Counted from the first letter of the stretch, positions 4,441 through 18,827 are shown. The stretch is DNA of 64,000 nt from Myxococcota bacterium (GCA_965223705.1 OZ245015.1:2400001-2464000), one strand, 5' to 3'. A program made the numbers and translations. Notes: generated from the sequence alone by a model not told the origin.

Positions 4441-5271
4441 CTACCTGGGAACCTGTTCCTGGATCTCACGGAGCTTGTCGAGATGCGCCTTGGGCTCGAG
4501 TCCGCCGCCGAGTGTCCGCAAACAGAGGTGTGTCAGACCCATGTCGCGCCAGCCGCGCACGCGATCCCGCCACTCCGCTTCGCGCGGGCCCACGACGGCG
4601 ACGCCCGCCTCGGTGCCGATGGCGTCGGCCGGTCGACCGACCTGGGCCGCACGCTCCTCGATGTCGGCCCGGATCGCGGGAAATTCCTCGGGTGACGCGA
4701 GCACGAACCAACCGTCCGCGCGGCAGGCGATCCGTTCTCGTACTGGCTGGCTCGGCGCCGCTTTCGCCCCAATCCAGACCGGTATCGGGCGCTGGATGGG
4801 CAGCGGGTCGAGGCCGGCGTCGTCGATCTGATCGAAGCGCCCCTTGAAGGAGACTGTCTCCTCCGTCCAGAGGCGATGTAGCAACGCGAGCTGCTCGTCA
4901 CACCGCGCCCCCCGCGTCCGGAAATCGACGCCTAGCGCGCCGTACTCATCTTGACTGGCGCCGACACCCACGCCCATGCGCACGCGACCCCCGGAGAGCC
5001 GGTCGAGCTCCGCCATCTGCTTGGCGATCAGAGCGGTCGGGCGCAGCGGGAGAATGATCACCGAAGGCACGAGCTCGATCCGCTGGGTCACCGCGGCGAT
5101 GTAAGAGAGCAGGAGCAACGGCTCGTGGAGATGGCCGCTCTCGGGGCGGAGAATCTGGTCGGGTACACGCAGATGCGTGTACCCGAGCTCTTCCGCGAGC
5201 ACGGCAAACTCCCGGATTGCGCCGAGGTCGTCCCGCATCTCGCGCACCGGGAGGGAGACGCCGATTTTCAT
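4441..5271 (-). CDS. LLM class (probably F420-dependent) oxidoreductase
   Basis: AEELGY, IAKQMAELDRLSGGRVRMGVGVG, PLPIQRPIPVWIG. Confidence 0.9.
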   Translation of the reverse strand: MKIGVSLPVREMRDDLGAIREFAVLAEELGYTHLRVPDQILRPESGHLHEPLLLLSYIAAVTQRIELVPSVIILPLRPTALIAKQMAELDRLSGGRVRMGVGVGASQDEYGALGVDFRTRGARCDEQLALLHRLWTEETVSFKGRFDQIDDAGLDPLPIQRPIPVWIGAKAAPSQPVRERIACRADGWFVLASPEEFPAIRADIEERAAQVGRPADAIGTEAGVAVVGPREAEWRDRVRGWRDMGLTHLCLRTLGGGLEPKAHLDKLREIQEQVPR

Positions 5272-5279
5272 CGGACGCG

Positions 5280-6248
5280 CTACCGAATGGCGACGGGGTT
5301 GATCACCATCTGCACGGCGCCCTTGAACCGCGCCTGGCCGAGGACGAACAGGAACTCCCAGGCTTCATCGGCGACGAGCTCCGTGGTGACCATGTTCTCG
5401 AGGATGTAGATCCCGCGCTTGGCGATGAGCTCCTGGTGCACCGGCACGAACTCGCCTTCCTTTTCCGCGGGGTAGGCTTCGGTTCCGATCGTGTCGCCGC
5501 CCACAGCGACCGGATTGTAGGTCGCCAGGTAACGCGCTCCTTCGACCCCGATCCCGGGCCAAGTTTTCACGCTCTCCGCGGGATCGAGCTCTTGCATCTT
5601 CATGTAGCCCGTATGGATCAAGATCACGTCCCCGGATTGGAATGTGATGCCTTGGCGAGCGGCCGCGCCGTCGAGCTCGGCTTTGTTGACGGCCGTTCCG
5701 CCCTTCAGCATCTCGACGCCTCCGCGGGTAACCACCGCGCTCGATCCCTGCGATTTCAGGTAACCGACCATGTCGAGCACGACGCCTCGGGCGACCATCG
5801 GGGGAATGCCCTCGATCCCGAATTTCGTCAGGCCCTGTGCGTGGTAGAAATCCTTCGACGTGAGGCCGTTGTAGAAGTGGTCCCCGATCGCGGCGTGACC
5901 CAGCCCATCGATCTGCGACCCGACGCCCATATGCGTCAGCATCCAGTCATCGAAATAGCGAAAATTGTTGGTGCCGAGTGGCGCGCCGAGCCCGTCCGCC
6001 CCGTCGCTGAAGACGAAGAGTTCGTGGGTACGAGAGCCGGCCGCGGGTGTCTCCCGGCTCGTGACTTGACCGAGGGCGTACCGCTTGCCTTTCGTCACGA
6101 GCTTGACGGCGGAGAGAATGCTCTCCGAGGTGATCTCGTTGACCGATCCCAACGTGTCATCGGCGCCCCACTTCGACGGGAACCAATCTTCGGCAAGAGA
6201 TCCGGACGGGAACAGAACGAGGGCAGCGAGTAAGACAAAGCGGTCCAT
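5280..6248 (-). CDS. Cyclase (kynurenine formamidase-like) family protein with signal peptide
   Basis: WGADDTLGSVN, GSQIDGLGH, GDVILIHTG and GIYILEN. Start set at ATG 6248 after AAGGAAG; hydrophobic leader ends in SLA. Confidence 0.88.
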   Translation of the reverse strand: MDRFVLLAALVLFPSGSLAEDWFPSKWGADDTLGSVNEITSESILSAVKLVTKGKRYALGQVTSRETPAAGSRTHELFVFSDGADGLGAPLGTNNFRYFDDWMLTHMGVGSQIDGLGHAAIGDHFYNGLTSKDFYHAQGLTKFGIEGIPPMVARGVVLDMVGYLKSQGSSAVVTRGGVEMLKGGTAVNKAELDGAAARQGITFQSGDVILIHTGYMKMQELDPAESVKTWPGIGVEGARYLATYNPVAVGGDTIGTEAYPAEKEGEFVPVHQELIAKRGIYILENMVTTELVADEAWEFLFVLGQARFKGAVQMVINPVAIR

Positions 6249-6437
6249 GGTGGCTTCCTTCCGAGGGTGCGTTGCGTGCCGCATTCTACGGCGGCTCGGG
6301 TCTTCCCGTCTATCCGCTGCTGAGACGGGCTGGCTCGGCGATCGGCAACTTGCTGGCAACTTCTCTCGGTACACGTTCCGGTGACAACTTGGCTAAAGTG
6401 TCGGGGTCAATTCCCCGCTCCCCAAGGAGATTCGAGC

Positions 6438-7526
6438 GTGAGACTTACTCCCCGCCGCGCGTCGCTCGTCGCCGCCCTGTTCCTCTCCGTGCTGTTCCTG
6501 TCCCCGGTCGCTCTGGCCGCCGATCATCGCGATTCTCCGACGATCGCGGGCGATCCCGAAGCCGATATCGCGGACTTCTTCGCTTTCAAGGACCCGAACA
6601 ACCCCGACGACCTCGTCATGATCATGACGGTGAGCCCGTTCTCACAGTCATCCGTCGCGACGTCCTACGCGTTCGACCGTGCTGTCCTCTACCGGTTCAA
6701 CATCGACAACGACGGAGACGCGATCGCCGACGCGGTCGTGGACGTCACGGTCCGTCCGGCACCGGGCCCCGGACAAATCGTGCGCGGCGTCTTTCCGGGA
6801 AGCGTCGTCGTGGAAGGCCCGGTCACGGCGCCGACGATCGGCATCGTCGCGAACCCGCCGGTCGTGACGTCTGACGCCGGGATGCGCATTTTCGCGGGGC
6901 CTCGAGACGATCCGTTCTACTTTGATGCCGCGGGTTTTGAACGCGTCGTAGCCGGGACCGGGAACTTCCTCGCCGGCCGCGACGGGCACGCGGGAATGAA
7001 CGTTCTGGCGATCGCGGTCGCTTTGCCGCTCGACGCCGTCACCAACGGAGCCACGGAACTGCAGCTGTGGGCAGAAACGCATCGTACGTTCGCCACGGTG
7101 CGCCAGCTCGGCTTCCGGGGGAGCATCGAACAACAATTCGGCGCCTTCCAGCGGGTCGATCGCGCCGGCAACCCGGCTCTCGTCCAGTCGTTGCTCTCCG
7201 ATGTCGAACGCGATCTCTACAACATCGGTGATCCCGCCGATGACGCCGCCAATTTCGCTGCACCGATCGAGAGCGCACTGGTAGCGATCGGCACCGAGCA
7301 GGCCGATATCGACTCCCTGCTCGGCATCCTCGTCCCGGATACGCTGAAGCTCGATCTCACGCAAGCGGCGCTGTACCCCAATGGGCGAACTCCCGAAGAC
7401 GATGTCGTCGATACGTTGTTGTCGTTGCTGTTCGACGCGCCGGGGCCGACCTCGGATCTGGTCAATTTCAACGATGCCCCTCCCGAAGGAAGCTTCCCCT
7501 TCCTCGCCGTCCCGCATCAGCCGTAG
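6438..7526 (+). CDS. Exported DUF4331 family protein
   Basis: Signal peptide followed by ADHRDSP..DPEADIADFFAF, FAGPRDDPFYFD, YPNGR..DDVVD and FPFLA. AAGGAG SD before GTG 6438. Confidence 0.85.
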   Translation: MRLTPRRASLVAALFLSVLFLSPVALAADHRDSPTIAGDPEADIADFFAFKDPNNPDDLVMIMTVSPFSQSSVATSYAFDRAVLYRFNIDNDGDAIADAVVDVTVRPAPGPGQIVRGVFPGSVVVEGPVTAPTIGIVANPPVVTSDAGMRIFAGPRDDPFYFDAAGFERVVAGTGNFLAGRDGHAGMNVLAIAVALPLDAVTNGATELQLWAETHRTFATVRQLGFRGSIEQQFGAFQRVDRAGNPALVQSLLSDVERDLYNIGDPADDAANFAAPIESALVAIGTEQADIDSLLGILVPDTLKLDLTQAALYPNGRTPEDDVVDTLLSLLFDAPGPTSDLVNFNDAPPEGSFPFLAVPHQP

Positions 7527-7549
7527 TACTCGCTGACTGGAGAGCCCCG

Positions 7550-8425
7550 ATGCGCACGCTGCTGGTGAGCGGCGGAAACAGCGGCCTAGGCAAGGACCTC
7601 GCATTGCGCTTCGCGCGCGGTGGCTACCGCGTCTTCGCGGGCGCGCGAGATCTGGCAGGCGCGGAAGAGCTCGTTTCCGAATCGCGACGCGAAAACCTCG
7701 CCGTGGAAGTCGTGCAGCTCGACGTGGACGATCCGGATTCCGTCGAGCGGACGGCCAAAACGGTTCTCGGCGCGACCGACCGGCTCGACGTCCTCGTGAA
7801 CAACGCCGGGATCGGTGTCTTCGGGGTCGCGGAAGAGGTGCGCTTCGAGGAAATCGCCCGAGTGATGGAGACGAACTTCTTCGGAGCCGTGCGTCTGACC
7901 CAGGCCTTTTTGCCGCATTTCCGGGAGGCCGAGAACGGCGTCATCGCGTTCATGTCGTCGTGGATGGGCCGCGTGCCGCTGCCCGGAATGCTCACCTACG
8001 CCTGTTCCAAGGCCGCCCTCGAGACCTTTGCCGAAACACTGGCGCAAGAAGTCCTCCGATTCGGCGTGCGCGTCTATATCCTCGAGCCGGGCTACGCGCG
8101 GACGCCGATGCACCGCAAGGCCCCCCGCTACGAGCTTCCGGAAAACTCCCCCTACGCCGATCTCTACCGGAACTGGCGAGCGCACTGGCGAACCGGGCGA
8201 GACCAGCCCACCGAGCCGGCTGAGGTTTCCGAAGCGTTGTTCGATGCCGTCGAAACCGGGTCGCCGGCCTTGCGTCTGGTCGTGGGGGAGGACTCCGCAC
8301 AGTGGATCGAGGCGCGGAAGCGTCATTCCGACGAAGTATGGCGTGAGGCGGGGCGTCCCCGTGAGCTCGACGCGTTCTTGGCCTGGGCGGAGGAGACTTA
8401 CGGTCCGGGCTTGTTTCGAGGCTAG
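7550..8425 (+). CDS. Short-chain dehydrogenase/reductase
   Basis: SGGNSGLG, NNAG and catalytic YACSK. Confidence 0.93.
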   Translation: MRTLLVSGGNSGLGKDLALRFARGGYRVFAGARDLAGAEELVSESRRENLAVEVVQLDVDDPDSVERTAKTVLGATDRLDVLVNNAGIGVFGVAEEVRFEEIARVMETNFFGAVRLTQAFLPHFREAENGVIAFMSSWMGRVPLPGMLTYACSKAALETFAETLAQEVLRFGVRVYILEPGYARTPMHRKAPRYELPENSPYADLYRNWRAHWRTGRDQPTEPAEVSEALFDAVETGSPALRLVVGEDSAQWIEARKRHSDEVWREAGRPRELDAFLAWAEETYGPGLFRG

Positions 8426-8434
8426 ACTCTGGGC

Positions 8435-9790
8435 GTGCAACTCGGTTATTTCACAGAGCGCCCCTACCGGCATCTCGACGAAGACGTGATCCTGCGCAAC
8501 CGCGCATTCTTCGGCATCTCGAACGCGCAGTTCGATCGCGAAGCCGCCGCCGACGACTACAACTACTACCTCGACGAATACTGCTTTGCGGAGGAGCTGG
8601 GCTTCGACGTGCTCGCGCTGAACGAGCATCACGGCAATCCCATTTGCATGGGCAACGTCATGAACGTCGAGGCGTCGATACTCGCGCGGATCACGTCCCG
8701 CGCTCGGATTGCGCTGATCGGGAACCCGTTGCCCGTGATCAAGCACCCGCTGCGAATGGCGGAAGAGCTGGCCACGATCGACCTGATCTCCCGCGGGCGG
8801 TTGATCGCCGGCTGGGTTCGAGGCGCGGGAGCCGAGCAGTTCTTCAACAACGCGAACCCCGCCTACAACCGCGAGATGTTCAACGAAGCGCACGATTTCA
8901 TCGTGCGCGCTTGGACGGAGCCCGGCCCGTGGCGTTACGAGGGCACGCATTTTCACTACCGCCACGTCAATCCGTGGGCGCTTCCCTATCAGAAGCCCCA
9001 CCCGCCCATGTGGATTCCCGGCGTCCTCAGTCCGGAGACGATTCGCTGGGCGGCCGAGCACCGCTACCCCTACATCGGGCTGGGGACGCACCTCCTCGCC
9101 ACGTGCGACATGTGGGACCTCTACGCGGACGTCGCTGCCGAGAACGGCTGGCAGGCCGGCTCAGAGAACTTCGGGTATCTGATGCCGGTGTTCGTGGCGG
9201 ACACCGAAGAGAAAGCACAGGACGTGGGACGCGGCTTCGTTTACGGAGGCGGCCAGAACGCGTTTTCGGCTCCGCAATTCATGATGCCGCCGGGCTACAA
9301 CTCGAAGAACGCCATTCGGCAGCTCGCGAAATCGTCCGCCGCGGGCGGCAGCTGGGTCGGCCTCAGTCGCGACAAACTCGTGGCCCAGGCCGAAGGAGAA
9401 AAGACCCAGAGCACGGATCTCGACGTCGTTCGCGGCAAGCTGCAAGCGGCGTTCGAGCGGGCCCAGCGCCAGTATCAGATCGTGGTCGGGACTCCCGAGT
9501 CCGTCACCGAGCGGCTGCGGCATATCCTCTCCGTGATTCGACCCGGCGCGTTCATCGTCCTGCACATCCAAGGGGCGGCCTCGAACGCGGATCGGATGCG
9601 AAGCGTTCAGCTGCTGGGAGAAGAAGTGATGCCCGCGTTGCGGAGGCACGCGGAGAAGATCGGCCTGATCGACCAATTCGAGCGCGAGCCGGGGTCGGTT
9701 CCCCTGCGGCCCAGTGCCACCCGAGCGCCGGTCATCGACCGGGCGCCCCTTGCCGACATGGGCTTGGCCTCTGGTACCCTAGCGTCATGA
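8435..9790 (+). CDS. LLM class flavin-dependent monooxygenase (long type)
   Basis: AEELGFD..LNEHH, AEELATIDLISRGRL, PYQKPHPPMWIPG. Confidence 0.9.
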   Translation: MQLGYFTERPYRHLDEDVILRNRAFFGISNAQFDREAAADDYNYYLDEYCFAEELGFDVLALNEHHGNPICMGNVMNVEASILARITSRARIALIGNPLPVIKHPLRMAEELATIDLISRGRLIAGWVRGAGAEQFFNNANPAYNREMFNEAHDFIVRAWTEPGPWRYEGTHFHYRHVNPWALPYQKPHPPMWIPGVLSPETIRWAAEHRYPYIGLGTHLLATCDMWDLYADVAAENGWQAGSENFGYLMPVFVADTEEKAQDVGRGFVYGGGQNAFSAPQFMMPPGYNSKNAIRQLAKSSAAGGSWVGLSRDKLVAQAEGEKTQSTDLDVVRGKLQAAFERAQRQYQIVVGTPESVTERLRHILSVIRPGAFIVLHIQGAASNADRMRSVQLLGEEVMPALRRHAEKIGLIDQFEREPGSVPLRPSATRAPVIDRAPLADMGLASGTLAS

Positions 9791-9912
9791 AAACTCGCTG
9801 CTGCAAGAGCTTCAAGCGCAAGGGGAAGCCCTGCAAGAAGTGCCCGAAGTTCGCGAACGCGACTTCGAAGGACGCGAAGAAGCGGCGGAAATCCAAGAAA
9901 CAAGCGAGCTAG
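9787..9912 (+). CDS. 41-aa Cys/Lys-rich microprotein (CC-x9-CxxC)
   Basis: MKTRCCKSFKRKGKPCKKCPKFANATSKDAKKRRKSKKQAS*. ATGA overlap with the LLM stop, GC3-rich codons, and it fills the intergenic gap. Confidence 0.7.
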   Translation: MKTRCCKSFKRKGKPCKKCPKFANATSKDAKKRRKSKKQAS

Positions 9913-9920
9913 GGGGCGCT

Positions 9921-10781
9921 GTGACGGCGATCGGAGTCATCGGATTCCCGACGGACCAAACCATCGACCCCGCCGCCTTGGGTCCGGAGCTCGAAGCGCG
10001 CGGCTTCGAGTCGATCTTCTACGCGGAACATACGCACATCCCGACGAGCCGACGCTCCCCGTTTCCGGTCGGCGGCGAGCTGCCCGAGATGTATTGGCGA
10101 TCCCACGACCAATTCGTGGCGCTCTCCATGGTTGCGGCGGTCACGAAGACGCTCAAGCTCGGCACCGGCATCACACTCGTGCCAGAACACGATCCGATCA
10201 ACCTCGCGAAGCGCGTCGCGTCGCTCGATCGGTTGTCCGGCGGGCGTGTTCTCTTCGGAATCGGCGCGGGCTGGAATGCCGAAGAAATGGAAGATCACGG
10301 CGTCGCCTTCCAAGACCGCTGGAAAGTGACGCGGGAGCGGGTTCTCGCCATGCGCGCGATCTGGACCGAAGACGAGCCCTCGTTCCACGGCGAGTTCGTG
10401 GATCTGCCCCCGATGTGGTGCTGGCCGAAACCGGTTCAGCCGGGCGGCCCGCCGGTCATTCTCGGCGCTTGGTCGAAGTGGACGCCCGCGCGAATCGCCG
10501 AGTATTGCGACGGCTGGATGCCCATCGAGGGCCAGGGCGACATCGAGAGTTCACTGCGGGCGATTCGCGCCGCCTACAAAGACGCCGGTCGCCCCGCCGA
10601 CGGACTCGATGTCACGATGCTCGCGGCCTCGAGCCCCGACCGCGGACCGGATCTACGCCGTCTTGCCCAGTGCGCCGAACAGGGAGTCGGTCGGGTTCTC
10701 CTGCCCATTCCGAACGAGCCGCGCGACGCGGTCCTCAAGGTCCTCGACAGTTATTCGGAAATTCTCGAGCGCTTCCACTAA
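9921..10781 (+). CDS. LLM class F420-dependent oxidoreductase (Rv2161c-like)
   Basis: AEHTHIPTSRRSP, HDPINLAKRVASLDRLSGGR, WPKPVQPGGPP; GTG start at 9921. Confidence 0.92.
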   Translation: MTAIGVIGFPTDQTIDPAALGPELEARGFESIFYAEHTHIPTSRRSPFPVGGELPEMYWRSHDQFVALSMVAAVTKTLKLGTGITLVPEHDPINLAKRVASLDRLSGGRVLFGIGAGWNAEEMEDHGVAFQDRWKVTRERVLAMRAIWTEDEPSFHGEFVDLPPMWCWPKPVQPGGPPVILGAWSKWTPARIAEYCDGWMPIEGQGDIESSLRAIRAAYKDAGRPADGLDVTMLAASSPDRGPDLRRLAQCAEQGVGRVLLPIPNEPRDAVLKVLDSYSEILERFH

Positions 10782-12007
10782 GCGCGCTGCCGCTTCTCGA
10801 AATCCTCGACCCATTTGACCACCGAGTAATGCTGGTAGCGCAGGGCCAACTCGTGGTCGTGGAACGTGAACGTCTCGCACAGGCCTTCGGAGATCGCGGT
10901 CTGTATGCGCTCTAGCGTGTTGCAATCTTCGCGTACGGCATCGCGGAGCTCGACGATCGCGTTCTCCTGGCCGAAGCGTTGGGCGGCATTGCTCGCCGGC
11001 TGCAGGTAGCCGTGCATCTGCCACTGCACTTCGCCCGGCCCGAGCGGCCACATCGTGTGGGTGAAGAACATTCCCGGTCCGATGATCAGCACGACGTTTG
11101 GAAAGAAGACGTGGAGATCGAGGGTCCACGCGGGGTGACGCGCCGGATTCACTCCGACGGGAAGGCTCTCGATCTGCGACGCGTCGCTTCCCCCGCTCGT
11201 GACCGGTGGTCCGGCGGCGAACTGCCAGGCCAGACCTTGCACGGGAAAGGGTTTGTAGTCGGGGTTTCCGGCCAGCGTTGCCGTGCGGTGCGGATACTTC
11301 GGGTAGAAGTCGATCAGCCGCCCCGTCGGGTTGTCCGGACCGCAGATCGATTCCGCCACCGACCGTTTGTGCAGGAACGGCACGTGGTAGATCTCCGTAA
11401 AGGAGTCGATCATCAGCTTCCAGTTGGTCTTGATGCGCGCCTGGAACTCGAACTCCGCGTTCCGTTGGCCGAACTGCCAGAAGCCGGCGAGCTCTCGGCC
11501 CTGGGCCCCTAAGTAGTCGGCCAAGGACTGCTCGGGCGCAGGGTTCAGATTGATAAAGATGAACCCCTCCCAGACGTCGGTCGCCACCGGAGGTAGACCG
11601 CGCTTCTCCCGGTCGAGGTCGTAGAAAGCCTTCTGATCCGGAACACCTTGGAGCTCCCCTTCGAGGTTGTACGCCCAGCCGTGGAACGGGCACTGGAACA
11701 GGTTGCAGTTCCCCTTCTCGCGAAGCTCGACGATCGTGCCGCGATGCTGGCAGACATTGTGGAACCCGCGAACCACGCCGTCTTTTCCCCGAGCCAGGAT
11801 GATCGAGAGTGCAAACGTCGGGAGCTCTTGGGTCACGAAGTCGCCGGCTTCGGGAATCCGATCTTCGCGACCCACGCAGAGCCAGGCCTGCCGAAAGATC
11901 GCGGCGAGCTCGCGCTGGTAGAACTCTTCTCTCCAGTACACGTCCGTCGAAACCGGGCCGGTGCCGACTTCGGGATGGCGCTGGGTGAGGCCTGTCGGGC
12001 TCGTCAT
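10778..12007 (-). CDS. Rieske non-heme iron oxygenase alpha subunit (copy 1)
   Basis: Rieske CQH...CPFH; mononuclear Fe site EIYHVPFLH...RED. ATG 12007 overlaps the upstream stop. Confidence 0.93.
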   Translation of the reverse strand: MTSPTGLTQRHPEVGTGPVSTDVYWREEFYQRELAAIFRQAWLCVGREDRIPEAGDFVTQELPTFALSIILARGKDGVVRGFHNVCQHRGTIVELREKGNCNLFQCPFHGWAYNLEGELQGVPDQKAFYDLDREKRGLPPVATDVWEGFIFINLNPAPEQSLADYLGAQGRELAGFWQFGQRNAEFEFQARIKTNWKLMIDSFTEIYHVPFLHKRSVAESICGPDNPTGRLIDFYPKYPHRTATLAGNPDYKPFPVQGLAWQFAAGPPVTSGGSDASQIESLPVGVNPARHPAWTLDLHVFFPNVVLIIGPGMFFTHTMWPLGPGEVQWQMHGYLQPASNAAQRFGQENAIVELRDAVREDCNTLERIQTAISEGLCETFTFHDHELALRYQHYSVVKWVEDFEKRQRA

Positions 12008-12366
12008 GACGGCTCCTGAGCTTCTAGATCCGCGAGCGGGACGGTCATTGGAAAGCGCTCGTGAGGCAATCCATCCACCACATTGGGCTGGTCGTACCAC
12101 TCGACGGCGGGACCGACCTCGGCCAAGGACAGGAGTAGCTTGAGCAGGCACTCCCAGGGCGGCGTGAGCTCGCCGAGTTTTCGTTGCGATAGATCCTCGA
12201 GTGCCTTGGGAGCGATGTCGATCATCGCCTCGTAGAAAGCGCGGATCTCTTGGATGGAGCGCGTGTGGCGCGCTGCGGTCCGCTCGCCGCTGCCGCCGAG
12301 TGCCCACACCGCGGCAAACGGCTCGAGGGTTTCGTAACCGGCGGGAAGCTCGAAACCCGCCGTCAC
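12004..12366 (-). CDS. Rieske-associated small protein (paralog 1), function unknown
   Basis: 120 aa, aligns by eye with 13595-13960 and 14351-14701; 4-nt overlaps at both ends. Confidence 0.85.
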   Translation of the reverse strand: MTAGFELPAGYETLEPFAAVWALGGSGERTAARHTRSIQEIRAFYEAMIDIAPKALEDLSQRKLGELTPPWECLLKLLLSLAEVGPAVEWYDQPNVVDGLPHERFPMTVPLADLEAQEPS

Positions 12367-13598
12367 GAGCCGGCGCTCGCTAATCCCTCATCGATCAGAC
12401 GCTTGACGACCGCGTACTGGTGGCGACAGGGAACTTCCATATCGGCGAAATGAATCTCCTTGAGGGATCCCGACATGATTCCGGCTTGGGAGCCTTCACT
12501 CGTCGCGATGTCTTCGCGAAACGCGTCGCGCAGGAGCGCAATCGATTGCTCCTGTGCGATCCGTTGTGACGGCGTCTCCGGCGGCACGAAATAGAGCGAC
12601 GCCTCCCAGCGCGTGGTCGCCGCATCGATCGGCCAGAACTCGTGGATGAAGAAGAAGCCCGCCGACGTGTCGAGTAGCCAGTTCGGGAAGATCGCGTTGA
12701 TGTCGAAGGAGTAGTAGGGATCGTCATCGGGGTTCGTGCCGGGGAGCTTCTTCGCGAGTGCGGCCTCACCTTGACTGAGGGACTCGCCGATCTGCACGGC
12801 GAAACGCTCGGAGGGATGAGGCTCGAAGTCGGGGTTGAACGAAAACGACATCGCGCGGTTCCGCTCGTACAGCTCGAGGTGATACGGGCGGCATCCCGGG
12901 TTGCGCCCGCCCGTGAAGTATTCGCCGATCGTGCCGGCGTGCACGGTCGCAACGTGGTAGCCCTCTTGGAAGGCGTCGAGAAATAGCTTCCAGTTCGCCT
13001 TCAAGGTGGCGCCCCAACGGCCGGCCACAGACATCGACTCGAAGGGGAAGCCTGTGAGCTTCTCGCCGATCTCCGCGAGTTGCTCTTCGAGCGTTTCGCG
13101 GGGTGTCTCGTCGAAGTTCACGAAGATGAAGTCTTTCCACGTCTCGCAGTGGACCGCATCGAGATTCAAGCGGCTCTTGTCGAGCTCGTAGAACTGAGAC
13201 TCCTCGGGGACGTCGCGGATATTTCCCTCGGTGTCGTAGACCCAACCGTGAAAGCGACAGGTGAAGTACTTACAGTTCCCCGCCCCTTCCGCGACGTTCG
13301 TGCCGCGATGCCGGCACACATTGTGGAACGCTCGAATCTCGCCATCTTTGCCGCGCACGACGATGATGCTCTTGCCGAGAATCTCGACCTTCTTGACGAA
13401 GTAGTCGCCCTTGCCCGGGACCTGGTCTGCCCGGCCCACCATGAGCCACAGACGCGAAAAAATGTGGTCGCGCTCGAGCGCGAGATGCTCCGGCGAGACA
13501 AAAGGCGCCACCGATACGGGCCCGGTCCCCAACTCGGGGTAGCGCTCGGCGTTGCGGTGGTCTTTCGACGTGAGATCGAGGGTCTGTGCGGCGCTCAT
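12363..13598 (-). CDS. Rieske non-heme iron oxygenase alpha subunit (copy 2)
   Basis: CRH...CRFH; DAFQEGYHVATVH...DAFRED. Confidence 0.93.
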   Translation of the reverse strand: MSAAQTLDLTSKDHRNAERYPELGTGPVSVAPFVSPEHLALERDHIFSRLWLMVGRADQVPGKGDYFVKKVEILGKSIIVVRGKDGEIRAFHNVCRHRGTNVAEGAGNCKYFTCRFHGWVYDTEGNIRDVPEESQFYELDKSRLNLDAVHCETWKDFIFVNFDETPRETLEEQLAEIGEKLTGFPFESMSVAGRWGATLKANWKLFLDAFQEGYHVATVHAGTIGEYFTGGRNPGCRPYHLELYERNRAMSFSFNPDFEPHPSERFAVQIGESLSQGEAALAKKLPGTNPDDDPYYSFDINAIFPNWLLDTSAGFFFIHEFWPIDAATTRWEASLYFVPPETPSQRIAQEQSIALLRDAFREDIATSEGSQAGIMSGSLKEIHFADMEVPCRHQYAVVKRLIDEGLASAGS

Positions 13599-13960
13599 GA
13601 CGGCATTCCTCCATCGACGACGCGGTAGCGCCTCGGCGCGGGAAGGATCTCAAATTTCTCGTAGGCAACCGAGTGCGGGACGTCGGGGGCCTGGTAGTAC
13701 TCGATCGCGGGAGCGATCTCCATCGTCATGAGCGCGAGCTCGAGGAGATTCGCCGCGTCTCGGGGCAGCGCGTCGAGTGTGTGCCGATCGAGTGCCCGGG
13801 CGATCTCCCTCATGCGCGGCATGGTGGCGTCGTAGAAGTCTCGGAGTTTTTCGATGGGTTGACCGACCCGGAAAGCATTGCGCTCCCGCTCGGTGCCGTG
13901 AACCCATTCTGGCACGAACCGTGCCAGCGACTCGAACCCTTCGGGAAGAACCTGACTCAT
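13595..13960 (-). CDS. Rieske-associated small protein (paralog 2), function unknown
   Basis: LPEGFESLARFVPEW...FYD...EIAPAIEYY..PDVP. Start is 13960 (ATG) or 13966 (GTG). Confidence 0.85.
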   Translation of the reverse strand: MSQVLPEGFESLARFVPEWVHGTERERNAFRVGQPIEKLRDFYDATMPRMREIARALDRHTLDALPRDAANLLELALMTMEIAPAIEYYQAPDVPHSVAYEKFEILPAPRRYRVVDGGMPS

Positions 13961-13982
13961 CCCCACAATTTACCACCCGGGC

Positions 13983-14303
13983 TTACAGTTCCGGCATCTC
14001 GACATAGAGGTAGCCGTCTTCTCCGACCGTCACCGGGTAGCTCGCCACCGGGGTCACGCAGGGCGCGCCGGTGACCGCGCCCGTCCGGATGTCGAATGTT
14101 CCGTCGTGAAACGGACAGACGATGTCGTTGCCCTCGATGTCGCCTTCGGACAGGAATGCTGCCCCGTGGGTACACACGTCGTCGGTCGCGTAGAACGCCC
14201 CCCCGACCTTGTAGACCGCGACGGGTTCTCGGCCGTCGATCTCGACTTGTTTGACAGAATCGTCCGACAGTTCGCCCGCGGGAATTGTTCGCAGTAGAGC
14301 CAT
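13983..14303 (-). CDS. Rieske-type [2Fe-2S] ferredoxin of a multicomponent oxygenase
   Basis: YATDDVCTHG...IVCPFHDGTFDIRTG; about 106 aa. Confidence 0.93.
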   Translation of the reverse strand: MALLRTIPAGELSDDSVKQVEIDGREPVAVYKVGGAFYATDDVCTHGAAFLSEGDIEGNDIVCPFHDGTFDIRTGAVTGAPCVTPVASYPVTVGEDGYLYVEMPEL

Positions 14304-14350
14304 ACCCGCAACGTATCGTAGAATCACACGAAATCATGCCGAGGAGCCCT
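14304..14350. promoter_or_regulatory. Back-to-back divergent promoter region of the Rieske cluster
   Basis: Minus-strand -10-like TACGTT (14310-14315) lies 6 nt from the ferredoxin ATG. Plus-strand TAGAAT at 14319-14324; GAGGAG SD at 14341-14346. Confidence 0.55.
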
Positions 14351-14701
14351 ATGCCGCGTTCTCTGCCCGAAAAGTTTGCCGAACTCGAGCGCTTCGTCCC
14401 CGAATGGGTGATCGATTCCGAAGCGGATCGATACACCTTCCGCGTGAATCGCACGATCGAGGAGCTCGACGCGTTCTACGGGGCCGTCTTCCCTCGCATC
14501 GACGACCTCGCAAACCACATCGATCAGTATCCGCTCGACGGTATGCCCAGGGACGCCGTCAATCTGCTCCGCCTGGGTCAGATGCTGATGGAGGTCTCTC
14601 CGGCGGTCGGCGTCTACCGACAGCCCGATGTTCCGAACTCGACTCCGTTTGAACGCTTCACGGTGATTTCCCCGCAGGAACCGATCCGCGTCCTCGATTG
14701 A
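14351..14701 (+). CDS. Rieske-associated small protein (paralog 3), function unknown
   Basis: LPEKFAELERFVPEW...FYG...EVSPAVGVYRQPDVP; GAGGAG SD. Confidence 0.87.
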   Translation: MPRSLPEKFAELERFVPEWVIDSEADRYTFRVNRTIEELDAFYGAVFPRIDDLANHIDQYPLDGMPRDAVNLLRLGQMLMEVSPAVGVYRQPDVPNSTPFERFTVISPQEPIRVLD

Positions 14702-14712
14702 TTGGAGAACGA

Positions 14713-15990
14713 ATGAGCACCCAAATCGAAAACCGACCCGAAGCCCGTCTGCCCGACTGGGACAACACCAACCCCGTCAAGGAGCGCTATCCGGAAATCG
14801 ATACACCTCCGATTCCCATCGAAGCCTATGTCTCCGAAGACTTCTTCGAAGCGGAGCGCGAGAAGATCTTCAAGAAGAAATGGCTCTACGCCGGTCGCAT
14901 GGAACGGCTGCAGAAGCCCGGCGACTACTTCGTCAACACCATGGAGGTGCTCCGCACGAAGAAGGACGGGACCTACCCGTCGTTCGTGATCACCCGTGAC
15001 GATCACGGCGAAGTCCGGGCGTTCTACAACGCGTGCAAGCACCGCGGCACCAAGGTTTGCTGGGACGACTCCGAGACCTGGGAGAGCAGCAACCGCAAGT
15101 ACTTCACCTGTCGTTTCCACGGCTGGGTGTACGGAAACGACGGCAGCCTCAAACACGTTCCCGACGAGAATCAGTTCTTCGATCTCAACAAGGCGGAACG
15201 CGGCCTCACGCCGGTGCACTGCGCGGTATGGAAGGACTTCATCTTCATCAATGTCGACCCCGCTCCGAGCCAAACGCTCGAAGAGCAGCTCGGCCCGCAC
15301 GCGACGAACTTGAAGGATTTCCCGTTCGAGCGACTCCGCAAGACCGGCATCTGGACCGCGGTGATGGACTGCAACTGGAAAGTCGCGATCGACGCGTTCC
15401 AAGAGGGCTACCACGTCGCGACCGTGCACGCGGGAACCATGCCCAACGCGTTCAACGGCTCGCTGAACCCCTACTGCCGGCCCACTTCGGTGCGCGTCTA
15501 TCCCGGCGGCAACCGCTCGATCACGTTTATGGTGTCGCCCGAGTACAAACCGGACGAGCTCGAAATGTGGGTGCGCCAGCGCGGAGCGAACTGGTACGCC
15601 GCTGCCGAAGACGGTTCCACGAACGACTTCGTCGGCGTGAACCCCGAGAACGATCCCTTCTTCGCGTTCGACTGCCACGGGATCTTCCCGAATTTGCTGG
15701 TCGATCCGTTCATCGGTGGGTTCTACGGTCATGAGTTCTGGCCGATCACGGTCAACAAAACGCGCTGGATCGGAAGCATCAACTTCCTCGCCCCGCAGAA
15801 ACCGAGCGACATTCTGTCGAACGAGCACGGGAAGATCTTGCTGCGTGATGCGTTCCGCGAGGACACCGTCACCCTCGACGCGTCTCAGGAAGGGATCGAG
15901 TCCGGAGGCCTCACCGACGTCATCATGTGCGACCACGAGATGGCGCCCCGCCACCTGTACAACGCGGTGGTCGAGATGGTGAACTCGTGA
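14713..15990 (+). CDS. Rieske non-heme iron oxygenase alpha subunit (copy 3)
   Basis: CKH...CRFH; DAFQEGYHVATVH...DAFRED; GGAG SD. Confidence 0.93.
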   Translation: MSTQIENRPEARLPDWDNTNPVKERYPEIDTPPIPIEAYVSEDFFEAEREKIFKKKWLYAGRMERLQKPGDYFVNTMEVLRTKKDGTYPSFVITRDDHGEVRAFYNACKHRGTKVCWDDSETWESSNRKYFTCRFHGWVYGNDGSLKHVPDENQFFDLNKAERGLTPVHCAVWKDFIFINVDPAPSQTLEEQLGPHATNLKDFPFERLRKTGIWTAVMDCNWKVAIDAFQEGYHVATVHAGTMPNAFNGSLNPYCRPTSVRVYPGGNRSITFMVSPEYKPDELEMWVRQRGANWYAAAEDGSTNDFVGVNPENDPFFAFDCHGIFPNLLVDPFIGGFYGHEFWPITVNKTRWIGSINFLAPQKPSDILSNEHGKILLRDAFREDTVTLDASQEGIESGGLTDVIMCDHEMAPRHLYNAVVEMVNS

Positions 15991-17753
15991 GACGAGCCTC
16001 GAGGTTTCTTTTCGCGTGCGCGCTGCTCGCGGCGGCGAACCTCGCCGAGGCGGGTCAGGTCAGCGGCAGCGTTGTCGACGAGCAAGGCCAGCCGATCCCC
16101 TTCGTGCGCATCCTCGTTGCGATTCCCGGAGGATCGCCCGCAACCGTCTCGGTGTGGAGCGCTGCCGACGGGAGTTTCGCCTCGCCGCCGCTGTCGGTGT
16201 CCGGCGACGCGATCCAGGCCTCCTCGTTCCGGATCGGCTGGGAGGAGACCTCGCGAGATCGCACGACGACCGGGGACGACGTGACGCTCAAGATCGCGAT
16301 GAAGCGGATCGGCAACGTCGCGCACCAGGTCCCCGCATCGGCGTGGATACCGGGCGAACCCGGCGAACGGGCCTACCACACCCTGGTCCACGAGTGCTCG
16401 AACTGTCACCAGATGAGCGCCGACCGCGTTCGCCGCTTCGCGTCGACCCTGGCGGAGGCCGACGAGCAGGCTCGCACCCTCGCTTGGGAGGGTATCGTCC
16501 AGATGATGCGCGGTGTGGCCTTCACCATGGGCCCCTCTGGCCAGGCCCAGCTCCGCTGGGGCCTCACGCCGGAGTCACCGGACTACCAAGCCGCGCTCGC
16601 GCCCGAGACGAGCTTCTTCCTGCCGAAGGATATGGATCTCGTGGTGCCGCTCTTGGCAAAATCCTTCCCTTCGAGTTTCGACGAGCTGACGGGGTACGAC
16701 GACGTCAACGAACTCGGCGACTACGGCGTCACGAAAAACACCGTCGTCGAAGAATTCGTCTTGCCGAGCTTTGGCTGGACGCGGGAGGTGGCCATCGCTC
16801 CTGGATCGCCTCTCGTCTGGTTCGTCGAGCTCGACGGCGACCGGTTGGGAAGCCTCGATCCGAAGACGGGCGAGGTCAATTGGTACGACGTGCCGGGTGA
16901 AGGGCCGCAGGGACCGCACACGATCAACGCCGACGCCGAGGGCGGCCTGTGGATCGCGCTCGAAGAGAGCTACGGGATTGCGCGTTTCGACACGAAGACC
17001 ACGCAATGGAAGGTCTACCCGCCGCCTCCGGACGTCAAGTTCGCCATCACCCACGACACGGCGTTCAACGAGTTGCGCCAGATCGAGATCGATTCCGAGC
17101 GGAAGATCTGGCTCACCCTGATCGGGATCAATGAGCTTTGGAGCGTTCACGTCGACAGCGGAAAGATCGAGCGGTATCCCATGCCGCTTCCCGAAGACGA
17201 GGAGCTCTTTCATGTGTTCCTCTACGGAGCGGTGATGGAGCCGGGCGGGAAGCGGGTCTGGTGGTCTCAACTCCACGGCAGTGTCGGCGCCTTCAACACC
17301 GAAACGAAAGAGGTCGACCGGCTGATCCCGCTCCCCCAGGGTGCCGCACCCCGGCGTATGGCGATTCAAGCGGACGGCATGCTCTGGGTGCCGCTCTTCG
17401 GCGAAGGCCAGCTTCTCAAGCTCGACACCAACACGGGCGAGGAAGTCGCCCGCTATGACCTGCCCGATCGCGCCGCGGCGTCGTATTCCGTGACGATCGA
17501 TCCCAAGCGGAAGGCGATCTGGGTGGGGACGACGAACTCCGATCGGATCTACCGCTTCGACATCGCCGACGCGCGCTGGCGACAATACCCGCTCCCGCGC
17601 AAAGAGGCGTATCTCCGATCGATCGAGCTCGATCACGAGACCGGCGACCTATGGACGAGTTACGCGAACCTGCCGGTCGGAAAACGCGATCCCGAAGTGT
17701 TTGGCTCCGAGAGCGCAAACAACATGATCGTACGACTGCGGCCGGGTGACTAG
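15987..17753 (+). CDS. Exported protein: carboxypeptidase-regulatory-like Ig domain, c-type heme (CxxCH) and Vgb-like beta-propeller
   Basis: Signal peptide ending AEA; VSGSVVDEQGQPI; CSNCH at 16395-16409; propeller repeats (LGSLDPKTGEV, GPHTINADAEGGLW, PRRMAIQADGMLW). GTGA overlap with the Rieske stop. Confidence 0.8.
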   Translation: MRRASRFLFACALLAAANLAEAGQVSGSVVDEQGQPIPFVRILVAIPGGSPATVSVWSAADGSFASPPLSVSGDAIQASSFRIGWEETSRDRTTTGDDVTLKIAMKRIGNVAHQVPASAWIPGEPGERAYHTLVHECSNCHQMSADRVRRFASTLAEADEQARTLAWEGIVQMMRGVAFTMGPSGQAQLRWGLTPESPDYQAALAPETSFFLPKDMDLVVPLLAKSFPSSFDELTGYDDVNELGDYGVTKNTVVEEFVLPSFGWTREVAIAPGSPLVWFVELDGDRLGSLDPKTGEVNWYDVPGEGPQGPHTINADAEGGLWIALEESYGIARFDTKTTQWKVYPPPPDVKFAITHDTAFNELRQIEIDSERKIWLTLIGINELWSVHVDSGKIERYPMPLPEDEELFHVFLYGAVMEPGGKRVWWSQLHGSVGAFNTETKEVDRLIPLPQGAAPRRMAIQADGMLWVPLFGEGQLLKLDTNTGEEVARYDLPDRAAASYSVTIDPKRKAIWVGTTNSDRIYRFDIADARWRQYPLPRKEAYLRSIELDHETGDLWTSYANLPVGKRDPEVFGSESANNMIVRLRPGD

Positions 17754-18306
17754 AGCGCACCGGTTCGCGTGGGCGTCTTTCGCCCTACTCCTCACGTTCT
17801 CGGCGCTTTCGGCGCGGGGCGAAGGAGAAGCTTCTGAAATCATCGAGCTCGGCAACCTGCGCCTCGAGGACGTGTGGATCAGGTCCGCGATCGGAAGCCG
17901 TCACGCGAAACTCTTCTTTACGTTTCGCAACCTCGGCCCCGACGACCGCTTGATCGTCGTCCGGTCGCAGCACGCATCGGGCCCCACGTTCTTCCGCACC
18001 GTCCGTCGCGGCCCATCGGGTCGCGAAGTCCGCACCGCGGAAGCAATCCCGATTCCGAGCACCCACCGTCCCTACGAGCTGAGCGAAGTCGGCCATTACG
18101 TGGAACTCACGGACCTCGAAAGGCCGCTCGTCATGGGCAGCCAACTGCCGGTGAGGCTCGAATTCGAGGGTGCTGGAAGCGTGACTCTCGACGTGACGAA
18201 CCGCTTCCACTCGCCGAGGCTCGCACGGCGGATTCGCGAGGCCATTCGCGCGAACGATGTCGAGAAATTGCGCGCGCTTCAGGAAGGCGAGAGGCCAGCG
18301 CGCTGA
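17746..18306 (+). CDS. PCu(A)C copper-chaperone-like exported protein with degenerate metal motif
   Basis: Signal peptide; LEDVWIR, FTFRNLGPDDRLIVVRS and PLVMGSQLPVRLEFEGAGSVTL scaffold. The canonical H/M ligands are largely missing. Confidence 0.65.
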   Translation: MTRAHRFAWASFALLLTFSALSARGEGEASEIIELGNLRLEDVWIRSAIGSRHAKLFFTFRNLGPDDRLIVVRSQHASGPTFFRTVRRGPSGREVRTAEAIPIPSTHRPYELSEVGHYVELTDLERPLVMGSQLPVRLEFEGAGSVTLDVTNRFHSPRLARRIREAIRANDVEKLRALQEGERPAR

Positions 18307-18827
18307 TCGCTCTCTGGGCCGAGAGCTCCCTCGTGGCGCAAGAGCCAACGTTTGCGCTCGATTCCGCCGCCGTAGCCCGTGAGATCGCCGCGCGCCCCGA
18401 CGACCCGATGGCAAGGCACAACGATGGCGACGGGGTTCGCACCGTTGGCGGCCCCCACGGCCCGTACCGCTTTTCTGTGCCCGATACGGGCGGCCAGGGC
18501 GCTGTAACTGACGGAGGAGCCGACCGGAATCTCGCGCAGGGCGTCCCAGACGCGCTGTTGAAAGGGTGTGCCGACCGCTGCGACCTCGACCCGGGCGAGC
18601 GCCGCGAAGTCTCCTTCGAAGTACGCCTCGATGGCCTCTCGCGCGCTCGAGGGCGTCGCCACGGGGGCGGGTTCCTCCAGCCCCCAACGCCTCATCCATT
18701 TGTTCAAGCGATTGTTGAAGTCTTCGAATTCGAGCGCCAACAACCGCTCCTCGTCATTGTGAACCGCGACCACCCGGCCGATCGGAGTCTCGATCTTCTC
18801 GATCCAACAGACCTCAGGCTGCCGCAC
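18279..18827 (-). CDS. ogt: Methylated-DNA--protein-cysteine S-methyltransferase
   Basis: GTPFQQRVWDALREIP, RAVGAANGANP and active-site PCHRV. Confidence 0.93.
   Translation of the reverse strand: MRQPEVCWIEKIETPIGRVVAVHNDEERLLALEFEDFNNRLNKWMRRWGLEEPAPVATPSSAREAIEAYFEGDFAALARVEVAAVGTPFQQRVWDALREIPVGSSVSYSALAARIGHRKAVRAVGAANGANPVAIVVPCHRVVGARGDLTGYGGGIERKRWLLRHEGALGPESDQRAGLSPS

Follow-up and report, generated by a model that had tools for sequence, protein, structure and literature searches.

The locus described here raises the question of why three neighbouring Rieske oxygenase genes are each accompanied by a small gene of a kind that matches no named family. It lies in 64,000 nucleotides (nt) of DNA from a Myxococcota bacterium (GCA_965223705.1 OZ245015.1:2400001-2464000), referred to here as the window; the catalytic subunits are named alpha1 to alpha3 and the small proteins P1 to P3, or collectively P. 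An earlier note, made from the sequence, had put P forward as a dedicated cognate partner of the oxygenases in a distinct architecture, either as a new small subunit or as a maturation factor. P is a real, widespread and apparently undescribed partner of one Rieske oxygenase clade, and probably an unrecognised kind of enzyme subunit. The reading that we favour, with reasonable though far from complete confidence, is that P is the dedicated, cofactor-free, non-NTF2 small subunit of this one deep clade. The genes concerned are as follows (aa, amino acids; pI, isoelectric point; pLDDT, predicted local distance difference test).

10778-12007, minus strand: alpha1, Rieske oxygenase catalytic subunit, 409 aa (PF00848, E 1.1e-25; PF00355, E 1.6e-14); ligands C86, H88, C106, H109, E205, H208, H213 and D361, invariant across the three window alphas
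12004-12366, minus strand: P1, small helical partner, 120 aa, pI 4.5, GTG start
12363-13598, minus strand: alpha2, Rieske oxygenase catalytic subunit, 411 aa (PF00848, E 2.9e-30; PF00355, E 2.2e-22); ligands C95, H97, C114, H117, E212, H215, H220 and D363
13595-13960, minus strand: P2, small helical partner, 121 aa, pI 5.4, AlphaFold2 pLDDT 94
13983-14303, minus strand: Rieske-type ferredoxin, 106 aa (PF00355, E 9.4e-20); alternative GTG start at 14327
14351-14701, plus strand: P3, small helical partner, 116 aa, pI 4.6, GAGGAG upstream of the ATG
14713-15990, plus strand: alpha3, Rieske oxygenase catalytic subunit, 425 aa (PF00848, E 2.6e-22; PF00355, E 1.7e-13), ligands kept

The gene coordinates bear out the layout read in the earlier note, alpha1-P1-alpha2-P2-ferredoxin on the minus strand and P3-alpha3 on the plus strand, with three 4-nt stop/start overlaps (ATGA at 12004-12007, GTGA at 12363-12366 and ATGA at 13595-13598) and an 11-nt gap between the end of the P3 stop at 14701 and the alpha3 ATG at 14713. 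The P1 stop overlaps the alpha1 ATG, and the P1 GTG start overlaps the alpha2 stop. Positions 9500-18500 are identical to one contig from a public run, possibly of the same DNA source and hence an assembly check only.

P and one clade of Rieske oxygenases

P genes and one clade of alphas are tied to each other in both directions, the outcome of the genome-wide co-occurrence check that the earlier note had proposed. In the genome that holds the window there are six P genes and six clade alphas, all paired and adjacent (P upstream in four pairs and downstream in two); the nine remaining alphas lack a P, and an adjacent PF00866 beta gene is found with four of them instead. A scan of GTDB for P confirmed 151 stretches, the best 80 of which were kept and correspond to 79 loci. 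Within these P-selected loci, 84 of 88 P genes lie at most 200 nt from a same-strand alpha match, P being upstream in 42 cases and downstream in 42. A full or contig-cut alpha borders 82 of the 88; at loci L044 and L048 P borders a C-terminal alpha fragment only, the full alpha being two genes off, and the remaining four comprise two with one amidohydrolase gene between, one with a 490-nt gap and one at a contig end.

Selection by alpha leads to the same association. Among 80 metagenome loci, the best of at least 605, 51 alphas are full-length with more than 400 nt on each side; an adjacent P accompanies 37 of the 39 that score at least 290 bits and none of the 12 below 290 bits, a threshold chosen after the score gap was visible. 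Five whole genomes picked for holding P, counted from the places listed, have all of their P genes beside a clade alpha (24/24), a P with 24 of 28 clade alphas and none with 60 other alpha matches. The ratio of P to clade alpha is 6:6 in the window's own genome, then 6:6, 9:12, 5:6, 3:3 and 1:1, and in a survey of 201 genomes of the phylum, which scored at most 9 alpha and 23 P candidates per genome, the two co-occur in the same three. Across loci P stays with alpha while all other neighbours vary. The placement of P directly upstream of alpha, which the earlier note had emphasised, holds in the window but not in general, given the even split among the 84 and the two downstream pairs of the own genome.

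At L044:5655-5900 and L048:5652-5940, the frame before P encodes the C-terminal 80-95 residues of an alpha, including the predicted P-binding helix described below; these fragments share 39-42% identity with the intact alpha that lies two genes upstream, and each could be a remnant or a mini-partner. Clade alphas with neither P nor beta adjacent are found at G222:C1:1555108-1556274, G222:C1:2000150-2001298, L208:3173-4414, L127:2014-3213 and L176:921-2120, and may rely on a P from another locus or may no longer need one.

Both PF00355 and PF00848 match all three window alphas above cut-off, and the Rieske ligands (Cys-x-His...Cys-x2-His), the two His, the Asp and the bridging Glu are all retained; the eight ligand positions listed for alpha2 are invariant in 93 clade alpha rows. 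Pairwise identities are 38.9% (alpha1/alpha2), 35.9% (alpha1/alpha3) and 44.1% (alpha2/alpha3). In the AlphaFold2 model of alpha2 (pLDDT 91), D363 is carried by a long helix (343-375), and loop 261-280 is of low confidence. A quick tree of 100 dereplicated alphas places all 65 P-adjacent alphas in one clade of 77 rows (Shimodaira-Hasegawa-like approximate likelihood ratio test, SH-aLRT, 99) and none among the 23 rows outside it. The clade spans Pseudomonadota, Actinomycetota, Acidobacteriota, Binatota and Myxococcota, with members in mycobacteria, sphingomonads and Paraburkholderia, and no solved representative of it turned up in the PDB sequences searched. No canonical beta gene stands beside a clade alpha in the loci retrieved, where beta-like genes follow non-clade alphas or stand apart. 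SnoaL genes occur near about one third of loci and were considered as hidden beta subunits; this idea was rejected, as 35 of the 37 scanned match SnoaL families only, and the two that match PF00866 both follow non-clade alphas. A SnoaL protein as an extra subunit at some loci is possible.

The P proteins themselves are acidic (pI 4.5-5.4) and 116-121 aa long in the window, with identities of 30.5% (P1/P2), 33.9% (P1/P3) and 46.6% (P2/P3). The motif that the earlier note had drawn from them is recovered as 26 alignment columns invariant in the three copies. Searched with a 22-sequence profile at E<=0.001, the family comprises 1,199 clusters at 50% identity, and its best 150 clusters range from 73 to 182 aa, typically about 110-125 aa. 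None of the three window proteins matches Pfam or NCBIfam at E<0.05; the 150 family members yielded, at E<=0.01, just five isolated weak matches spread over four unrelated families, and no glutathione S-transferase (GST) match. Conserved positions in 150 rows are L5, P6, F9, L12, W19, R27, R31, Y43, L72, E81 and E87, R27 and R31 reaching 99%. No Cys or His column reaches 50% in these rows (Cys 0.7% and His 1.8% of residues), and from its sequence P does not appear to be an obvious Fe-S or iron carrier, though carboxylate-only binding is conceivable.

The helical appearance of P, remarked on earlier by eye, agrees with the AlphaFold2 model of P2, in which helices span residues 10-15, 24-32, 36-57 and 67-89 and no strand of at least three residues is predicted. 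This model, together with the lack of any PF00866 or SnoaL match among the 150 members at E<=0.01 or the three window proteins, upholds the earlier impression that P is not an NTF2-type beta subunit. Fold searches point to no clear characterised family: the best Foldseek E is 2.9, and the best structural match among 48,161 chains has a Z of 4.4 and a root-mean-square deviation of 4.5 with 76 aligned. Such weak matches are not evidence of a new fold. A PDB sequence search with P gave no match below E 0.049, P relatives in the ESM Atlas fall in unnamed clusters only, with nothing usable among the named ones, and no phage match was found. No longer or fused form is present among 8000 scored candidates, which is weak evidence, and no description of the family was found in the open-access literature searched. 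Source labels for P read hypothetical, except that two UniRef entries among those listed, the mycobacterial members A0ABT3SEU7 and A0A1A2Z0H0 (107 and 118 aa), are labelled Xaa-Pro dipeptidase. Their size does not support that identity, none of the 150 members scanned matches a peptidase family, and the label looks like a carried-over error.

P1 lies between alpha2 and alpha1, and its partner is ambiguous by position alone. Among relatives, alpha2-like proteins (64-72% identical) occur with P2-like ones, alpha3-like with P3-like and alpha1-like with P1-like; because the closest alpha1 relative (L013, 55%) also carries the closest P1 relative (48%), P1 is assigned to alpha1. The identity matrices of alpha and P, a mirror-tree type of comparison, correlate with r=0.61 over 32 dereplicated pairs, a value that none of 5000 permutations equalled. 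P2/P3 and alpha2/alpha3 have the highest identity of each set, as the earlier note had perceived. In the quick tree, alpha2 and alpha3 fall in sister groups and alpha1 groups with the alpha of another own-genome locus, L001. Alpha2/alpha3-type pairs recur with genes for the propeller protein and copper chaperone described below at four other loci (ferredoxin at three of the four), and the alpha1-type pair is absent from the retrieved stretches of those loci. From this recurrence and the tree, the window cluster was assembled from old paralogues rather than by recent triplication. In line with the co-duplication suggested earlier, the divergence of P tracks that of its alpha.

The predicted alpha-P complex and the role of P

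Complex prediction, which the earlier note had also proposed as a check, was carried out for one pair with one P copy, as an ESMFold2 job with two alpha2 copies (residues 8-406) and one P2, each with its own alignment. The alpha2-P2 model scored 0.90, 0.89 and 0.90, against 0.39 for the best of three controls; among reference cases, 116 of 157 solved complexes attained the score mark, as did 2 of 215 mismatched pairs, a calibration that is only rough for this job. The runs share at least 94% of contacts, with a partner pLDDT of at least 88 and 120-124 contacts. P2 touches one alpha copy at residues 190-199, 222-223, 261-270, 332 and 339-365: in the model, its helices 3-4 (47-89) pack on the alpha helix 339-365 with D363, and its tail (102-112) runs along strand 190-199. 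The 37-residue interface holds 4 of 15 clade-specific alpha residues (P262, E350, R357 and D358; p=0.04). In BPDO B356, a beta loop bonds the two residues preceding the iron ligand D386, on the same helix (PMC3536784, available text), and by comparison with that text the predicted P site would overlap the beta site at least partly. The model supports binding of alpha and P but does not show it. At the 25 best predicted contacts the mean covariation z is 0.42; 192 of 10,000 random sets and none of 20 shuffled pairings attain this value, which is a weak signal and depends both on the model and on relatedness.

As the small subunit that we favour, P would pack on the C-terminal helix that holds the mononuclear iron ligand D363 of the alpha catalytic domain and would stay bound, most simply as alpha3P3. 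It would brace the mononuclear iron site, as the NTF2-type beta does in other oxygenases, and be needed for a stable, active enzyme. The stop/start overlaps would give matched amounts of alpha and P, and the enzyme would draw its electrons from the Rieske ferredoxin (13983-14303) and from a reductase whose gene lies elsewhere. The earlier view of P as a dedicated partner is supported in part, by its non-NTF2 fold, clade-specific linkage, tracked divergence and a controlled complex model; its role as subunit rather than maturation factor, the alpha3P3 composition and a shared ferredoxin are inferred.

Several observations weigh against the small-subunit reading. Adjacent genes would be expected to diverge together through linkage alone. 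The single P2 contacts a single alpha copy and not the Rieske domain, so that the beta-like footprint is only partly reproduced; solved alpha-beta complexes may bias where the model lays a partner, and the calibration is rough. The top inter-protein covariation (z 4.68) is not above that of eight shuffled pairings (3.93-4.68). P6, F9, L12, W19, R27 and R31, the most conserved residues of P, do not belong to the listed interface, so P may have a further role. The closest solved alphas, CntA and Stc2, are listed as alpha3 assemblies with no small subunit (PMC12445004, in the part available), and the scaffold needs no brace in general. The linkage also has exceptions: 4 of 28 clade alphas in the five genomes and 2 of 39 in the metagenomes lack an adjacent P, and the orphans inspected have no beta gene standing in; loci L021 and L022 carry one P before two alphas; and seven lin-plasmid records match P, two of which, on inspection, have no intact alpha beside it. 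One P for each alpha is accordingly not a strict rule.

Some of the same facts would suit the main rival reading, a transient assembly or metallation factor that binds the iron-ligand helix of nascent alpha, assists its folding or its loading with iron, and dissociates from the finished alpha3 trimer. The linkage and the predicted site next to D363 are the same in this case, one P can precede two alphas, orphan alphas occur in genomes with other P genes, and the nearest solved alphas are alpha3 assemblies. We regard such a factor as unlikely but worth bearing in mind, given that 150 P sequences have no conserved Cys or His, that the number of P genes in a genome comes close to that of its clade alphas, in excess of what a shared chaperone requires, and that the predicted interface is large at 120-124 contacts. 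The conservation of R27 and R31 at 99%, off the alpha interface, would find a use in a bound adaptor or regulator whose main task is to dock ferredoxin or gate the substrate entrance rather than to stabilise the fold: the window ferredoxin is strongly acidic (pI 4.05), an arginine of the cumene dioxygenase beta subunit is critical for Rieske-ferredoxin binding (PMC9361823, available text), and the predicted contacts of P at alpha 261-270 fall close to the low-confidence loop 261-280. P is acidic overall, though, and the two arginines may form buried salt bridges, which leaves the adaptor a slim prospect.

It is very improbable that P acts separately in the pathway, as an enzyme or a binder of products, and is merely co-transcribed with alpha. 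W19, R27, R31, Y43, E81 and E87 could form a site, P is kept on lin plasmids near linC without an intact alpha, and some UniRef entries bear the dipeptidase label; but P accompanies alpha while other neighbours change, the complex model passes its controls, and the label looks erroneous on proteins of 107-118 aa. The lin copies abut IS6100, with a cut clade-related alpha fragment on one plasmid, which fits passive capture. It is scarcely credible that P is a highly eroded canonical beta subunit, even though it is adjacent to alpha and its predicted site lies on a helix that is likewise contacted by beta: the confidently modelled fold, with four helices and not one strand as long as three residues, is unlike the NTF2 sheet, and the family lacks PF00866 and SnoaL matches.

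Electron supply, neighbouring genes and substrates

The window ferredoxin, whose top NCBIfam matches AndAb and HcaC are both under cut-off, has no close paralogue in the genome (next best match 47 bits) and may for this reason serve all six pairs. The sole PF14759 reductase domain in a search for PF14759-type reductases lies at C1:2228180, about 186 kb off. The divergent start codons of ferredoxin and P3 are only 47 bp apart (14304-14350); TAGAAT (plus) and TACGAT (minus) in this interval could be overlapping -10 elements, and the promoter scan reported no site there and nothing above chance.

Two further genes follow alpha3.

15987-17753, plus strand: gene coupled to alpha3, encoding a hydrophobic N-terminus, a CxxCH motif and a Vgb-like beta-propeller (PF24684, E 2e-20)
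17746-18306, plus strand: PCuAC-type copper chaperone gene (PF04314, E 3.4e-10)

The propeller gene overlaps the alpha3 stop, and the copper chaperone gene is next. Relatives of both stand side by side with the alpha2/alpha3-type pairs at the four loci mentioned above (L024, L028, L029 and L088), the window propeller protein being 64% identical to the L088 copy, which suggests that the two genes encode an exported haem/copper enzyme tied to the pathway. On the other flank (4441-10781) are three luciferase-like monooxygenase genes, a short-chain dehydrogenase/reductase (SDR) gene, a cyclase-family gene and a DUF4331 gene; one of the luciferase-like genes is convergent with alpha1 and overlaps it at 10778-10781.

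Elsewhere, the neighbours of alpha-P pairs include amidohydrolases, amidases, formamidases, SnoaL proteins, P450s, 2,5-dihydroxypyridine dioxygenase and indole monooxygenase, which suggests that several clade members act on nitrogen-containing rings or amides. On an Acinetobacter plasmid (L217) the order is formamidase-alpha-P-NTF2-indole monooxygenase-flavin reductase-SDR-ferredoxin-reductase; against the clade profile its alpha reaches 485 bits, and against the P profile the gene that follows reaches 119 bits. Both published primers for gene1684 of A. piscicola p38 match the ends of the L217 alpha exactly, with 1203 bp in both. RNA sequencing of p38 with skatole found gene1684, the alpha, up 5.1-fold (adjusted p 4e-7) and the hypothetical gene1685 rising from 0 to 2.8 (adjusted p 1e-4), expression of both being low and in three replicates; as far as the available part of that paper goes, only flavin monooxygenases were assayed and gene1685 is absent from the main text (PMC11434297). 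By gene order with L217 alone, gene1685 would be P. The own-genome pair at L003 is a relative of the L217 pair (57% in alpha, 49% in P), and the three window alphas are not.

An operon conserved in Paraburkholderia, Caballeronia, Sphingobium and Paroceanicella (L070:4345-12035, L231:730-9678 and some 17 similar loci) comprises alpha, P, two cupins, a reductase, SnoaL, a dihydroorotate dehydrogenase-like pair, ferredoxin and an asparaginase-like gene; it looks like an undescribed N-heterocycle pathway, no description being found in the literature searched. In Variovorax sp. WDL1 (L219:6706-11791), alpha-P is followed by genes for a 2,5-dihydroxypyridine 5,6-dioxygenase and a protein of the isochorismatase family, which points to a substrate of the pyridine type. 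At six Acidobacteriota loci (L036, L037, L038, L051, L064 and L079) the pair comes after glycine/sarcosine/betaine reductase-like genes (PF07355, PF09338), an odd combination of reductive and oxygen-dependent amine genes. On the lin plasmids, which serve lindane degradation, an EthD gene and then P come after linC (L215:7511-9333, L216:5937-9333), flanked by IS6100; the cut alpha fragment near P on one inspected plasmid is 45% identical to a clade member, and an alpha-P cluster may be where linC was recruited from.

Comparison with known Rieske systems

P resembles the PF00866 (Ring_hydroxyl_B) beta subunits of NDO, BPDO, CumDO and TPADO in being small, cofactor-free and encoded beside alpha, and differs from them in its length of about 110-125 aa, its all-helical model, its occurrence on either side of alpha and the lack of Rieske-domain contact in the model. 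We consider it fairly likely that P works like a beta subunit from outside that family. A non-NTF2, non-catalytic structural subunit required by a Rieske oxygenase exists in the caffeine N7-demethylase NdmCDE, whose NdmE is GST-like and about twice as long as P. Unlike NdmE, P has no GST match, and its partner alphas keep their own Rieske domain. With the beta subunit of BPDO B356, P would share a contact, predicted in its case, with the helix bearing the iron-binding Asp (PMC3536784, available text).

The closest solved alphas are CntA (PDB 6Y8J, 6Y9C and 6ZGP) and Stc2 stachydrine demethylase (3VCA and 4QUP), with a best profile match of 170 bits, far below clade members (about 300 bits or more), and a best fold match with a template modelling (TM) score of 0.71-0.74 on the query at about 21% identity. 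The bridging acid is Glu in both, clade E212 aligning with the Glu of the CntA motif. Clade alphas are unlike these two enzymes in having P adjacent to 37 of 39. An active-site Tyr is described as a hallmark of quaternary-amine oxygenases (PMC9939785, available part); its column appears to align with alpha Phe210, and the clade has Phe here in 76% of 76 rows, an aromatic residue but not Tyr. The Rhodococcus ska/skt cluster was considered as a described example and set aside, its oxygenase being annotated as alpha plus beta and shown to be an aniline dioxygenase (PMC13101512, bioRxiv 2024.12.29.630347, available portions), and no support was found for a link of P to xiamycin clusters.

Reviews name, in the parts available, only alpha3, alpha3beta3, alpha3alpha3 and alpha3alpha'3 assemblies (PMC12445004, PMC9939785). 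We suggest tentatively, as something plausible but short of probable, that alpha3P3 is a further quaternary architecture, in which an all-helical, non-NTF2 subunit independently took the beta site, specific for its own alpha and obligatory. If so, the obligatory partner would account for the lack of a solved clade member in the PDB sequences searched, and clade alphas expressed alone may be inactive; adding the adjacent 'hypothetical' gene could then open a large untapped set of oxygenases, including the skatole-induced member and those of mycobacteria, sphingomonads and Paraburkholderia. If true, the use of one and the same helix by two unrelated kinds of small subunit would represent convergent evolution at a metal site and, set beside the canonical enzymes, would give a direct way to test what beta subunits do.

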